Assembly (NCBI RefSeq): GCF_006345805.1
Contig: NC_043007.1
Location: forward strand, 63,922,001-63,986,000
DNA length: 64,000 nucleotides
Direction of reading: 5' to 3'
Source of the DNA: Octopus sinensis
Taxonomy: Eukaryota
Shown here: one piece after another, positions 13,897 to 63,316 of the stretch
Position numbering within the stretch: the first letter of the stretch is position 1
How the letters are laid out: each line of letters begins with the position of its first letter
Program-made: the position numbers and the translations under genes
The notes under the pieces: model-generated
Told to the model about the DNA's origin: nothing
The model's database searches: none
The model's input: the letters and a program-made list of their open reading frames with translations, nothing else

Positions 13897-14000
13897 AAAA
13901 AAAATATGGAATGCTTCATGAATTTACATGTTATTCTTGCACAGGGATGATGCTAATGTCCTCTGTATAATTCTAGTATATGTACAGCCAAAGCTAGTAC
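13897..14000 (-). pseudogene. RNU6: U6 snRNA retropseudogene
   Basis: Minus strand gtactagctttggctgtacatatactagaattatacagaggacattagcat..caagaataacatgtaaattcatgaagcattccatattttttt aligns end to end with U6; multiple substitutions and a short deletion. Confidence 0.9.
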
Positions 14001-15958: not shown

Positions 15959-16991
15959 ACCACAAGTAACTCTGGATTTTCATTGTATAGTTTGTGTTCT
16001 CATTGTAGATATGAAGGGATTCATGAGGATGGTTAATAGTGAAAATAAAATGGAAAAAATGTGTGTCAGTATATAGTATGTGTGATTATTTAGTGGTTAT
16101 TGAAGTGTGTCAGTCTTGAGCAAGATTGGAAACGGCTAATCAAAGCAGCTGTTGTTTACATCTCAGTTTTGTCAATCAAAGTAACCCATGGTACCAGAAC
16201 ATCCAGACATTATTCGCATAGAACATTGAGAGGAAAGTCTTAGTTTGATTTTTTGCAACCCTAAAGATTCCACTCACACATTCACAGCAAACAAGGCACA
16301 GAGCCAAGACTTTAGATCATGTAGGTGTATTTTTACCCACTCCAATGTTTACACACGGCCAGTTATATGTCACTATGAGTAGAGCAATGAACTCCAGTAA
16401 TTTGAAAATTAGTGTCAACCAAACAGAAAATGTCATCTGCAAAGACATTTTGTAATCATATTGATATTATCGAAAGAAATGTGATTCATAATTTAAATAA
16501 GGAAATTTGTGAACTTTGAATGTATAGAGTATAAACAAACATAAAATAGCGTAAGCAACTAAAATAAAAGTATATCTAAATAACATTTTTTCTTAATACT
16601 CTTTATGTAGTGGTGGAAGGAAGCTCTGGCTTTCATTAGGGGTGGTCCACATAACCATTCATGATACAGAGGCTGGGAGCCTATTTCAGTTCAGGAGTGA
16701 ATCGTCATCGCATGTCACTTAGTTGCAAACACATGTCAATACATATCACCAACTATAATGTGCTTTCTCTAAGACATCACCCAGTAATCTATCAAGTCCA
16801 TTCACACATTTCTCAATACATACTACTGTTATGACTTCCCTCCTTCATTTTATGCTTCCGACATAGATGAGTAGATTTTCTTGTACTTGTAAGGCTAATA
16901 TATAGTTTAACTCCCAGTCACCAAAACAAAAAAAAACATTATTTATGTTATTTACATTTGACGGATATTTATCCTCATCTTGTTTGTTGTT

Positions 16992-17037
16992 AACACAACG
17001 TTTCAGCTGATATACCCTCCAGCCATCATCAGGTGTC
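16992..17037 (-). ncRNA. Minimal type I hammerhead ribozyme of the Penelope pLTR
   Basis: gacac-CTGATGA-t ggctg gagggtatat cagct-GAAA-cg-TT-gtgtt; palindromic ACGU helix III. The + copy at 17955-17992 has AAAAC in place of GAAAC and a deletion. Confidence 0.75.
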
Positions 17038-17212
17038 TTGGGGGAAATTTCAAACCTGGGTTCTCATTCCTAAGGTATTTTTCAATGTTGTTGTTGCTGT
17101 TGCTGTTGCTGTTGTTGTTGTTGTTGTTGCTGTTGCTGCTGCTGCTGCTGCTATTCAGGTCACTGCCTGGAATCGAACTCTGAATCTTGGGGTTTGTAGC
17201 TCATGTTCTTAA

Positions 17213-17804
17213 TGAAATAATCGAGCTCAGTAACAATGTATTAAGCAGCAGCTACCCCAAAAACATACTATCCACTCCAATTATGAAGAAAAGCGAGGAT
17301 GAAACCAATAAACTGTCCACAGTCTGTCTACCCTCTGTGAAAGGCCTCTCTGAAAAGATACAAAAGATATGCAGCCCATATGACATCAGGACAGTATTCA
17401 AGAGTAATATAACACTTTGCAAATATCTCCTTCAAGTAAATCCACCAATAGAAGAGAATATGACCAAAAACTGCGTGTACTCCATCCCATGCAACTGTGG
17501 TAGGTTATACAAAGGCGGAACATGCCGCCCCCTCAAAATAAGGGTAGAGGAACATCGCAAAGCTATGACACGAGGAGATATTGATAAATTGGGTATAGCT
17601 GTTCATGTATGGAAACACAAAGACCACCTCTCCCTGTGGGATGAAGTTAGAATAAAAAACAGAGAACACCACTGGAAAATATGAAAACTAAAAGAAGCAG
17701 CACATATGCTAGGACACAACAATCTCCTAAGCAGACAGAGTGCAGATCTGAATAACATATGGGAACCGGTATTAAGGAAGGATAGAAAAATATTAGATTT
17801 ATAA
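17213..17804 (+). pseudogene. Penelope GIY-YIG endonuclease domain (one in-frame stop at 17682-17684)
   Basis: LPSVKGLSEKIQKI..NCVYSIPCNCGRLYKGGTCRPLKIRVEEH..HVWKHKDH..REHHWKI*KLKEAAH..IWEPVL. Confidence 0.85.
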
Positions 17805-17839
17805 GCCCTAAAATCCACTCCATAATTGCCCACGAACAT

Positions 17840-17898
17840 ATGGCATAGTAGTTAAGAGTGTGGGCTACTAACCCAAGTTCGATTCCAGGCAGTGGCCT
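17840..17898 (+). promoter_or_regulatory. tRNA-like Pol III A/B-box module inside the Penelope terminal repeat
   Basis: tggcatagtagttaagag (A box) and agttcgattcc (B box); B box also present in the inverted copy at about 17158-17212. Confidence 0.6.
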
Positions 17899-18627
17899 AA
17901 ATAATAATAATAATAATTACATCGAAAAATACCTTAGGTTTGAAATTTCCTCAAGACACCTGATGAAGGCTGGAGGGTATATCAGCCAAAACAATATGAG
18001 GACAAATATCTGTCAAATGTAAATAATGGACATAATTCCTCATCTCTTAAATATAGAACTGTGTTAAAAAAAACAGTCTAATAGGTGTAAAAATATGTGT
18101 AGAAAACAAATAATGAAAACAAAAATTTGCACAAACAAATGAGGGCAGGGTGGTGGATATTAGAGGACTTTCAGAAAATTCACAAGATCTGATTTTTTCC
18201 TCATAACTTTCAGGTAAATGGATATATATTGAGGAAATTATATCGAAATACCATTCAAATGGCATAGATTATGATTATAAAGAAATATGGGGAAAATGTT
18301 TTCTGAAGGAGTGGGAGAGGATTTCGGAAAATTCACACAATCCAATTTTTTCTTTCATAACTCTCAGGAAAATGGGTATCTTTTTATGAAATTTTACAGA
18401 AATACCTTTCAAACAGCGTAGGTTACGATTATAAAGAAATTTGTGGGGAAAATGTTTTCTGAAGGGGTGGGGAGAGGACTGTTGGACAATCCACATGCGT
18501 TTTTTTCTTTATCGTCATAATCTATGCCGTTTAAAAGGCCATGGAGAGGTTTATTTCAAATCTATCCTTCATTGCATTTTCAATATAATCACATTTGAAA
18601 ACTAGTGCTTGAGAATGGAGAATCTCA

Positions 18628-56698: not shown

Positions 56699-56792
56699 AT
56701 CAGCTCACAGCACCACCTGTGAGATGCAAGCATTTCAGAGTAGTTATTTCCTCTTCAGTCACAGAAACCAGGCAGTGGTGCTGCAAGCTGAT
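56699..56792 (-). ncRNA. Extended type I hammerhead ribozyme
   Basis: atcagcttgcagcaccac-tgcctggttt-ctgtga-CTGAAGA-gga aataactac tct-GAAA-tgcttgca-TC-tcacag-gtggtgctgtgagctgat; core intact, 6-bp plus 18-bp stem I. Confidence 0.85.
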
Positions 56793-60990: not shown

Positions 60991-63316
60991 CTATGCGGTA
61001 CTGGTGCAGGAAGCAGCCCGGGTCTTTGCAGTCACAGCATATCTCCAGAGATCTCGGTCCTTCGCCATTGCCTCAGTGAGGCCCAACACTCTGAGGTCAT
61101 GCTTGACTACATCATCCCATGTCTTCCTGGGTCTACCTCTCCCCCTGATACCTTCAACCTTTTGGGAGTGGCACTTCTTCACACATCTCTCCTCATCCAT
61201 CTGCAGTACATGACCATACCATCGCAAGCGTCGCTCTTGCACACCACATCTGATGCTTCTTATGTCCAGCATTTCTCTCAGGGTGCTTACACTTTGTCGT
61301 GCGTGCACACTGACATTATACATCCAGCGGATCATGCTAGCTTCATTTCTTTCAAGTCTACGCATGTCCTCTGCAGTCACAGCCCATGTTTCACTACCGT
61401 GAAGCATGGCAGTTCGCACACATGCATCATACAATCTACCTTTCACTCTGAGCGAGAGACCCTTTGTCGCCAGTAGGGGTAGGAGCTTTCTGAACTCTGC
61501 CCGGGCTATTCGTATTCTAGTGGTGATACTCTCTGAGCATCCACCTCCACTACTAACTTGGTCACCCAGGTAGCAGAAACTATCAACTACTTCTAGTTTC
61601 TCCCCCTGGAGTGTGATGGAATCTGTTTTCTGAGTGTCTGTGGTGTCTATTGTCCCTGTGCATCTGCCGCACATGAAAGCTATCTTATCAGTTAATTTCC
61701 CTTTGATGTTGCTGCACCTCTTATGCGTCCATAGCTAACATTGGGTGCATCTTATGGAGTTTCTACCTACACCTTTCCTACAGCTCAAGCAGGGCCACCT
61801 GCCCGAGGGTGTGTGTGCTGAGTTCGCCTTTCTGCTTACTATAACTTTGGTCTTTGCTACATTTACTCTAAGGCCCTTTGATTCTAACCCTTGCTTCCAC
61901 ACCCGAAATTTCTTTTCTAGTTCCGGTAGTGATTCTGCTATGAGAGCCAGGTCATCAGCATAGAAGAGCTCCCAGGGGCATCCTGTTTTGAATTCCTCTG
62001 TTATTGCCTGGAGGACTATGATGAATAAAAGGGGACTGAGGGCTGAGCCTTGGTGTACTCCTACTTCTACCCGGAATTCTTCACTATATTCGTTGCCAAT
62101 CCTAACCTTGCTGACAGCCTCTCTGTATAGAGCCTGTACAGCCCTTATTAGCCATTCGTCAATCTCCAGTGTCCGCATCGACCACCAGATAAGGGATCGG
62201 GGGACCTTGTCAAAGGCCTTCTCCAAGTCCACAAAAGCTATGTAGAGGGGTTTATCTTTAGCTAGGTACTTCTCCTGCAGTTGTCGGACCAGGAATATAG
62301 CATCAGTGGTGCTTCTACCCGGCACAAAACCGAACTGCATCTCATCTAAGCAAATTCTCTCCCTAATGAGATGGGTTATGACCCTCTCTGTGACCTTCAT
62401 CACCTGATCCAACAGTTTAATACCCCTGTAGTTATTTCTATCTAGAGCATCACCCTTACCCTTGTAGCAGTTGACTATGGTGCTGCTACGCCACTCATTG
62501 GGTATGACTCCATTATGAACTACCTGGTTTACAATGCGGGTGACTAGGCCATAGCCCACATAGCCAGCTGTTTTAAGCATCTCAGCAGTGATTCCTGATG
62601 GGCCGGAGGCTTTACCTGGTTTCATATCCTTAATTGCCTTAACTACAAGGGAGCTATCTATTCGGATAGCTGGTCCCTCTACTGGGTCAACATTTTGCAG
62701 GCTCTCCTCCTCCCATTCATTCTCCTCATTCAGCAGTCTTTCATAATGGCTTCTCCAAGCCTCTTTCTTTTCACCAACATTAAGAGCAAGTGCCCCATCA
62801 TCCATGCGGACACATTTCTCTCCTGTAACATCACTATTTTCTCTCTCACACTGTCTGGCAATCCGAAATACCTCAGCTCTTTGGTCCTCACATCGCTAGA
62901 CATTGGAAAACTTCTTTTCTACTACATCTTTGGCTATGTATACCTGCCACCCAGCCTCCCTTTTGGCTACCTGGTACAGTTCCCTGCTACCCCCATCCCT
63001 CCAGGCTTTCCAGGCCTGTCTCTTTGCACTAATGGCTTTGTCTACTGCACTATTCCACCACCACGTAACTCTAGGTCTGGAAGGGACTTTGCACCATCCA
63101 CAGACTTGGTCTGTGGCCCTCAGCAAGCTGTCCCGTAGAAATTCCCAGCTACCTTCTATGTCTGACGTCTGAAGCTCCTCCTCCCTCTCATCAAATTTCT
63201 TGATGAGGATGTCCCTAAATCTCTGACCATGTGATGGGTTCTTTAGCTTCCAAATCCTTCTTTTCTGGATTGGTTTGTTTCTTGGAGTCCTTCTGGCCTC
63301 AAGCTTAAAGTCACTA
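60991..63316 (-). pseudogene. RTE ORF2 reverse transcriptase with PHD-type finger; two in-frame stops (62896-62898, 61735-61737), no frameshifts
   Basis: NYRGIKLL, QFGFVPGRSTTDAIF, FVDLEKAFD, GVHQGSALSPLLF, YADD, YLG, RLRWYGHV; the three track ORFs share one frame. Confidence 0.95.

Follow-up and report, generated by a model that had tools for sequence, protein, structure and literature searches.

The window analysed here is a stretch of 64,000 nucleotides of Octopus sinensis DNA (GCF_006345805.1, contig NC_043007.1, positions 63,922,001 to 63,986,000 of the forward strand), and positions 16937-18062 of it are occupied by a single insertion made up of an inverted partial terminal repeat, a 5'-truncated piece of an open reading frame (ORF), and a direct terminal repeat. 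The two inverted arms (16937-17212 on the minus strand and 17827-18062 on the plus strand) align blockwise with 77-100% identity per block, and a fragment of a GIY-YIG-type endonuclease sits between them. The frame of this fragment shows 59% identity to the Penelope-like element (PLE) protein P0001 and, with an E value of 4e-18, a match to the endonuclease region of the PF01541-bearing protein P0015; a direct Pfam search with the window frame gave no match. It has an in-frame stop at 17682-17684 and its true stop at 17802-17804. The output of a repeat search of the window was dominated by microsatellites. The insertion is a copy, now decayed, of a retrotransposon family of the Penelope/Poseidon type in which the ORF is preceded by a tRNA-derived head with A and B boxes. 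This head is probably an internal promoter of RNA polymerase III (Pol III) for the whole 2.6-kb protein-coding unit, a reading that we favour while leaving real room for doubt.

A preliminary description of the locus had placed A and B boxes about 35 bp after the stop codon, a trinucleotide run and a hammerhead ribozyme behind them, and the whole module in both arms. The distance agrees with what is found, the A box beginning at 17841, but this box is decayed, it does not match the A/B pattern that we used, and a 9-nt deletion lies between it and the B box. The (AAT)n spacer of the right arm is as described, but the CAG/CAA tract of the left arm is exceptional, being seen only in the window copy and one other locus, its near-identical partner L002, and the spacer of the family is (AAT)n(AAC)m of variable length. 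The hammerhead core is whole in the left arm, with a palindromic 4-nt helix III and a G-U pair at the base of helix II as its layout is read from the sequence, and the predicted cut site is between 16997 and 16996; the right-arm copy, with its core position at 17960, is broken (Table 1). The arms do align but neither is complete, as the left one begins 12 nt inside the head and has no A box, although its hammerhead core is full, and the right one has a 14-nt deletion that takes out the ATG. Because neither arm is complete, the presence of the module in both is in itself poor evidence about its origin.

Table 1. Parts of the insertion in the window.
Feature	Position	Strand	Basis
Inverted 5' arm, a partial terminal repeat: a head lacking the A box, then spacer, ATG, hammerhead and a short piece of tail end	16937..17212	-	Aligns with right arm and family copies
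Minimal type I hammerhead, whole core	16992..17037	-	Only match to the family core pattern in the window
ATG at which the family ORF probably begins, 34 nt upstream of the hammerhead core	17065..17067	-	In-frame ATG in copy L399
Spacer, CAG/CAA tract	17086..17152	-	TRF; seen only in window copy and L002
3' part of tRNA-derived head, B box 17169-17178, A box missing	17153..17212	-	Arm alignment
5'-truncated ORF: end of reverse transcriptase thumb/linker and GIY-YIG-type endonuclease	17213..17804	+	Protein matches
Position of the family 5' wall and fold-back hairpin	17827..17833	+	Family 5'-end data
tRNA-derived head, with an A box at 17841-17851 that has one change and a B box at 17877-17886	17834..17898	+	Arm alignment, tRNA alignment
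(AAT)n spacer	17899..17917	+	Sequence; family-wide, length variable
Broken hammerhead, GAAA and cleavage site lost	17955..17991	+	Alignment to left arm
PLE tail, ending at the outer of two family 3' end sites	17992..18062	+	3'-end comparison

A DNA search of the 2.7 Gb genome with the ORF piece of the window turned up 3,037 candidates; 40 of them were scored and 30 retrieved, and in 28 of these 30 ORF-anchored loci, the window included, the head follows the ORF stop; in the two exceptions the head is deleted (L003) or the copy ends at that place (L027). The genome has 3,847 exact matches to a 21-mer of the head and none to the reversed control. In a sample of 86 heads (the first 90 of the 3,847 matches, all on contig C1, from which 4 duplicates were dropped) the hammerhead and tail follow in 78. 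Other copies thus carry the tRNA-like module as well, and the proposal that it belongs to the element is upheld. The order in the family is head, (AAT)n(AAC)m spacer, ATG, hammerhead in the first codons, tail, reverse transcriptase (RT), endonuclease, stop, about 30 nt, and the next head; the unit is about 2.6 kb long, and the full order comes from RT-anchored loci. In this tandem arrangement the head forms the 5' leader, with the spacer, 19 nt, the ATG, and the hammerhead core 34 nt into the ORF behind it, and in L399 a stretch free of stops that matches amino acids (aa) 18-285 of the protein P0005 lies in the frame of this ATG. Of 30 loci anchored on the N-terminus of the ORF (4 of these 30 are one insertion and 2 are the arms of one), 6 have head, spacer, hammerhead and ORF start in an uninterrupted series, and 3 of these 6 copies begin at the head. 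The 3' ends fall at two sites 30-36 nt apart, with 15 long and 15 short ends among 30 loci, and unaligned read ends accumulate at both; this is the PLE tail, and both sites are probably start sites of reverse transcription.

The class of the family follows from its protein. An RVT_1 match was obtained in L020, the homologues carry PF00078 or PF26215 and one of them PF01541, and RT, endonuclease and head follow in that order in L132 and L148. The linker zinc finger between RT and endonuclease is absent in L223 and present in the controls L212 and L214; since this additional finger is a feature of Neptune and Nematis (PMC8557442), the family is of the Penelope/Poseidon type, and a quick tree, which has unnamed relatives only, places it apart from the zinc-finger controls. 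It also has a single ORF with RT and GIY-YIG domains, tandem pseudo-long terminal repeats (pLTRs), inverted 5' arms and an optional tail of 30-40 bp, as PLEs do. The family is old, because its copies have a median identity of 94% to the column majority and the longest stop-free frame is 551 aa. In protein searches of the same genome with the family RT and with P0009 the top matches were the family itself, with no recognised sister family, and searches of viral contigs and genome contigs gave no relatives. Contigs from two other organisms cover all 30 bins of L148 with mostly the same letters, so the family is present there too. Two RNA runs on L148 are unstranded, with a depth that tracks copy number, and hence carry no information about start site, strand or polymerase; L148 itself has a deletion in the hammerhead.

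Most heads in the sample are not joined to an ORF. The 86 heads run directly into the hammerhead and tail in 75 cases, do so after a spacer insertion in 3, and do not in 8, several of which carry another element inserted in the spacer. Only 22 are linked to an ORF end and 64 copies start in the head; solo copies, which the preliminary description wished to see counted against ORF-linked ones, amount to 62, taken as heads with no ORF piece within 1.2 kb upstream. That description had suggested that the terminal repeat might be able to spawn Penelope-dependent short interspersed elements (SINEs) or retrozymes. The 62 solo heads, the 8 heads without hammerhead and tail, and a weak match of the head profile to the heads of other SINE families in the genome (E 0.008-1) are what would be expected if the head with (AAT)n were an independent SINE, or if the ORF-less unit were a separate Penelope-dependent lineage with master copies of its own. 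Among 206 heads from all loci, however, linked subfamily alleles occur at similar frequencies in solo and ORF-linked copies: the variant at position 7 of the hammerhead is found in 17 of 91 solo and 11 of 67 ORF-linked copies (P 0.83), and the single allele site that differs between the classes (P 0.002) is a CpG. The two classes are also equally diverged (4.5-6.5%), the PLE tail is present in 78 of the 86, and the target duplications that were seen, in 3 of 12 simple solo copies (1 scored by script and 2 by eye) and about 9-12 bp long, surround the whole unit and not the head, which is at odds with the head having inserted as a SINE with its own duplication. We therefore consider a separate SINE or retrozyme lineage very improbable indeed, and that part of the earlier proposal is not borne out: the head is not a separate SINE, because it follows the ORF in 28 of 30 loci and is followed by hammerhead and tail in 78 of 86, and the ORF-less units look like by-products, judging by the subfamily alleles that they have in common with ORF-linked copies. 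Two of 30 tail-anchored loci, L264 and L281, show a direct duplication of the hammerhead part; longer arrays were not seen, no genome-wide search for arrays having been made. Separately from this, pieces of another long interspersed element (LINE) lie inside the (AAT)n spacer of L051, L069, L105, L117 and L023; they may resemble Dong/R4 elements, which target TAA repeats.

The head is, to judge from its sequence, derived from a tRNA but is not a tRNA. A natural head copy can be aligned over its full length with tRNA genes of the genome (z 8.7 versus shuffles), the best score being to Arg(TCT), among 27 sequences of six isotypes only. In L070 the A and B boxes are 45 nt apart, which is the spacing of a tRNA, and such a pair arises in 8 of 20,000 shuffles; the same pattern recovers 30 of 30 real tRNA loci. 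ARAGORN found no tRNA in the window or in 36 loci, and Rfam found neither a tRNA (RF00005) nor a hammerhead in the window and the copies. The head may have come from a tRNA gene or from a SINE.

The first line of evidence on the function of the head is where copies end. Of 85 copies at risk, 63 end 5' within 32 nt, between -10 and -41 of the anchor, whereas in the next 32 nt only 2 of the remaining 22 do so (Fisher P 2.9e-8; 0.34 versus 0.033 ends per 10 nt). The outer limit, or wall, is at -35/-36 of the anchor, which is 13-14 nt before the A box. At type 2 promoters Pol III starts 10-20 nt upstream of the A box, and a start at the wall, for which the 5' ends of insertions are an indirect proxy, would lie at about 17827-17828 in the window copy. 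Genome-wide, exact 21-mers just upstream of the head number 792, compared with 3,847 in the head and 11,407 in the tail. Most copies extending to the wall fold back there on a 5-bp hairpin (769 fold-back versus 464 read-through matches, some fold-backs being counted on both strands), and 20 of the 63 ends join plain flank without any inversion. This pile-up of ends in the head points to transcription of the whole unit by Pol III. The ends also cluster at -24 to -29, the position of nucleotide 1 of a tRNA, as they would if the head were a processing signal at which RNase P cut the tRNA-like 5' end in a read-through RNA made by RNA polymerase II (Pol II) and so freed unit-length templates, as hepatitis delta virus (HDV) ribozymes do for R2. 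We find this quite improbable: the acceptor and T stems are degenerate and, as said, neither ARAGORN nor Rfam sees a tRNA, 21 ends are further upstream than nucleotide 1, at -30 to -39, the fold-back needs sequence to -35, and the paucity of T runs described below would be left without explanation.

The second line of evidence comes from terminators. Pol III stops at runs of at least four T (T4), so the Pol III hypothesis predicts that T4 is absent from the sense strand, a prediction that was made ahead of counting. In the column majority over the unit the longest T run is 3, and T4 occurs at any one site in at most 10% of copies; 17 natural copies have 0-2 T4 each, at private places, compared with 2.5-6.3 expected. 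Ten majority T4 that appeared on the L223 reference were rejected as not belonging to the sense strand; they derive from the inverted upstream arm. A composition null gives 5.0 T4 expected (P 0.004). With codon-aware nulls the probability of zero T4 is 0.034 and 0.0017 for the 551-codon frame and 0.30-0.36 for the N-terminal part, and combined, as the product of two non-overlapping natural frames, it is about 0.01 by synonymous permutation and about 0.0006 by third-position resampling. Two control PLE families with the linker zinc finger, obtained from a GIY-YIG Pfam search in the same genome and having the same T content, carry 8-13 and 10 T4 per ORF, with T5 runs, and one of them has CCAAT/CRE-like repeats after the ORF in place of the head. 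In other organisms 48 of 60 PLE loci were measured (12 were omitted as short or duplicate), and none of the 25 with at least 4 T4 expected has zero; the lowest ratio among these 25 is that of L322, the only one with an A/B pair in its untranslated region. The lack of any shared T4 in a 2.6-kb sense strand thus also points to Pol III transcription of the whole unit. The two lines are new support for the captured tRNA promoter that the preliminary description had suggested.

Several observations weigh against this interpretation. As many as 37 of the 63 ends are at -10 to -28, short of the wall, and the wall hairpin, which is the strongest cDNA-end hairpin in its vicinity (-3.7 versus -2.6 kcal/mol, L075), could cause the stops by itself; moreover, defined 5' ends of pLTRs with palindromes are generic in PLEs (PMC3846280). 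Three of the 6 contiguous head-to-ORF copies extend upstream into the end of a preceding ORF, and neither an intact ORF nor a complete head-ORF-head copy was found among the loci examined, in which the longest stop-free frame is the one of 551 aa. The A and B boxes decay as fast as the remaining head (5.0% and 5.0%) with no sign of selection, as is expected of dead copies. In foreign loci with fewer than 4 T4 expected, 7 of 23 have zero, compared with roughly 3 by chance, and no head was found in them, so that ORFs low in T4 occur without a head; a tRNA profile run on 43 foreign 3' regions gave no head, but this profile is weak and missed L322 and the window's own arms. Runs of four G are absent from the family too, and absent or single in the control PLEs. 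Finally, a single family is a single data point and the most conservative null gives a P of only about 0.01. The locus L002 (G000:C11:62787743-62791373), 1.15 Mb away, has 990 nt in common with the window copy at 97.6% identity, with the same deletions and the same inversion junction, different flanks, and an end exactly at the tail, and is likely a re-mobilisation of the defective copy in trans; it includes sequence upstream of the sense head, which implies that some templates started elsewhere.

The generic palindromes, the strong hairpin, L002 and the seven foreign loci with neither head nor T4 speak for a head that is a passive captured piece of a tRNA or SINE, or that drives short transcripts only, with the RNA of the ORF coming from Pol II by host read-through or a cryptic promoter in the pLTR, the wall arising from self-priming of the hairpin, and the lack of T4 being chance or a trait of the clade. 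The known PLE promoters are of the Pol II type, that of Drosophila virilis Penelope being TATA-less with a downstream promoter element and an intron (PMC2377424) and that of an Adineta PLE being TATA/initiator-like (PMC3846280). Against such a passive head stand the hairpins of the endonuclease region, which at -2.6 to -3.4 kcal/mol give no pile-up of ends, the 20 of 63 ends that join flank without inversion, and the T4 counts, with no zero among foreign loci for which at least 4 are expected and 8-13 in control PLEs of this genome. On balance we think a passive head unlikely, although it is an explanation to be taken seriously.

Under a Pol III promoter the life cycle of the family would probably be as follows. 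Pol III would start at the wall, read through the ORF, as there is no terminator within it, and terminate at whichever T run comes first in the flank. A 3' end made ragged in this way would not matter, because reverse transcription of PLEs starts inside the RNA, at the tail, where the protein of the element would prime it. Priming at the first tail would give the abundant 300-nt ORF-less units, whose synthesis would run off the 5' end of the RNA and often fold back on the 5-bp hairpin, and priming at the second tail would give ORF-bearing, mostly 5'-truncated copies such as that in the window. An unstructured A/C-rich spacer might, more speculatively, permit translation of the uncapped RNA: (CAA)n and omega leaders support uncapped initiation (PMC3963034), and the resemblance of the family spacer to them is offered as a lead only. 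Internal initiation of reverse transcription, at two start sites marked by the tail, and an ORF that overlaps the hammerhead have been shown for Poseidon of Anolis (PMC11167929).

A possible second case is L322, an intact tandem PLE on the metagenome contig JGI1357J11328_10009043 with two identical units of 2,791 bp. Its protein is 36% identical to that of the window family and lies outside its clade in the quick tree. After the stop, at L322:2757-3030, there is an A/B pair, followed by a short run of AAT and, at the ATG, by a hammerhead; the A/B pair arises in 6 of 20,000 shuffles, and the sequence scores z 4.5 to tRNA-Thr and z 0.2 to the head of the window family, to which it is thus unrelated. 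Each unit has 2 T4 and no T5, with a P of 0.002-0.004, 0.10 or 0.17-0.20 depending on the null. As an independent case of the same design L322 is suggestive only; if the reading is true, there would be a class of Pol III-transcribed protein-coding retrotransposons. The wider proposal is that some autonomous PLEs have, at least twice (the window family and L322), swapped Pol II for a captured tRNA promoter, purged their terminators, and come to translate an uncapped 2.6-kb RNA through an (AAU)n(AAC)m leader. We put it forward tentatively, thinking it somewhat more apt to fail than to hold.

Much of what is seen here is already known from PLEs, including the tail, the hammerhead, inverted arms and solo pLTRs (PMC4209133; PMC3846280; bioRxiv 10.64898/2026.07.22.740005). 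Poseidon of Anolis carolinensis (PMC11167929) and Penelope of D. virilis (PMC2377424) have the same single ORF with RT and C-terminal GIY-YIG domain, pLTR tandems and inverted 5' arms, with two 3' ends about 35 nt apart and a minimal hammerhead overlapping the ORF start; unlike the PLEs described in these accounts, the window family has a tRNA-derived A/B head as its 5' leader and a unit without T4. Our literature searches found no report of a tRNA-like or Pol III promoter in a PLE, although Repbase, Dfam, supplements and subscription journals were outside their scope and may list the family; the accessible portions of PMC13282606, PMC7761336 and PMC7229834 make no mention of a tRNA promoter in a PLE, and the main text of the retrozyme preprint (bioRxiv 10.64898/2026.07.22.740005) mentions neither tRNA, Pol III nor a promoter. 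The TRIMp3 elements (Cassandra, Helenus and Ajax; PMC10886601) likewise have a Pol III promoter derived from a small RNA in the terminal repeat, which in Helenus is a tRNA head, but they are non-coding, non-autonomous long terminal repeat elements of 311-1263 bp, whereas the window family encodes its own RT and endonuclease; the autonomous partners of TRIMp3 are argued to need Pol II (PMC10886601). The preliminary description had likened the module to SMalpha of Schistosoma, and the hammerhead SINEs SMalpha and Sj-alpha (PMC6765202) do combine a Pol III promoter with a type I hammerhead. The analogy is a loose one, as they are non-coding tandem repeats, and the hammerhead of the window family is minimal, lies inside the start of the ORF and belongs to the pLTR of an autonomous family. 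Animal non-LTR retrozymes (bioRxiv 10.64898/2026.07.22.740005; PMC7229834) are also ORF-less hammerhead derivatives of pLTRs, often monomers, but are defined as tandem arrays, while the solo units here are dispersed and have their alleles in common with autonomous copies. R2 (PMC6765202) is another protein-coding retroelement whose RNA is made by a polymerase other than Pol II; it differs in being co-transcribed with ribosomal DNA, excised by an HDV ribozyme and without a promoter of its own.

Pol III promoters in mobile elements have so far been described for short non-coding parasites (SINEs, TRIMp3, SMalpha), and autonomous elements are taken to need Pol II. R2 RNA is translated uncapped. 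If the interpretation given here is true, a Pol III-driven element with an ORF of 830 codons breaks the Pol II rule and its transcript is a natural long uncapped mRNA. It would also explain why PLEs are suited to Pol III, their reverse transcription being primed internally with no need for a poly(A) end. A short route from a PLE to SINE-like units is open too, the terminal repeat already joining a promoter to an RT start site. Any PLE library can be put through the T4 test at little cost.

Of 119 copies in which the hammerhead is fully covered, 70 have a whole core. In minimum free energy folds the left-arm sequence of the window does not form the hammerhead but copy L261 does, and in an RNAcofold dimer the hammerhead fold was not obtained; in Poseidon of Anolis the hammerhead is dispensable for insertion in vitro (PMC11167929). 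A second, unrelated hammerhead-like motif, read by eye and without an Rfam match, lies on the minus strand of the window at 56715-56768; its helix III has 4 bp and its helix I has 6 bp. In one case, at L080:1470-1870 (oriented), the family head is followed by a different hammerhead repeat with inverted arms, which is also found in L207:43-413 (oriented).

Some further observations were made along the way. Loci L212, L213, L218 and L219 (for example G000:C1:207474300-207479500) represent a young PLE family, used as a control, that has intact frames of 781 aa and a linker zinc finger. A separate open frame of 300-430 aa lies upstream of its ORF, and CCAAT/CRE-like repeats lie behind it. Thirty-six contigs with eukaryotic PLE sequence (L345-L380) lie in prokaryotic metagenome-assembled genomes, probably through host contamination. 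Elsewhere in the window there is a U6 small nuclear RNA-like sequence at 13900-14000 on the minus strand (64.8 bits, with a 6-nt deletion), which is probably a pseudogene, and an open frame of 386 aa at 61735-62895 on the minus strand resembles a LINE reverse transcriptase.

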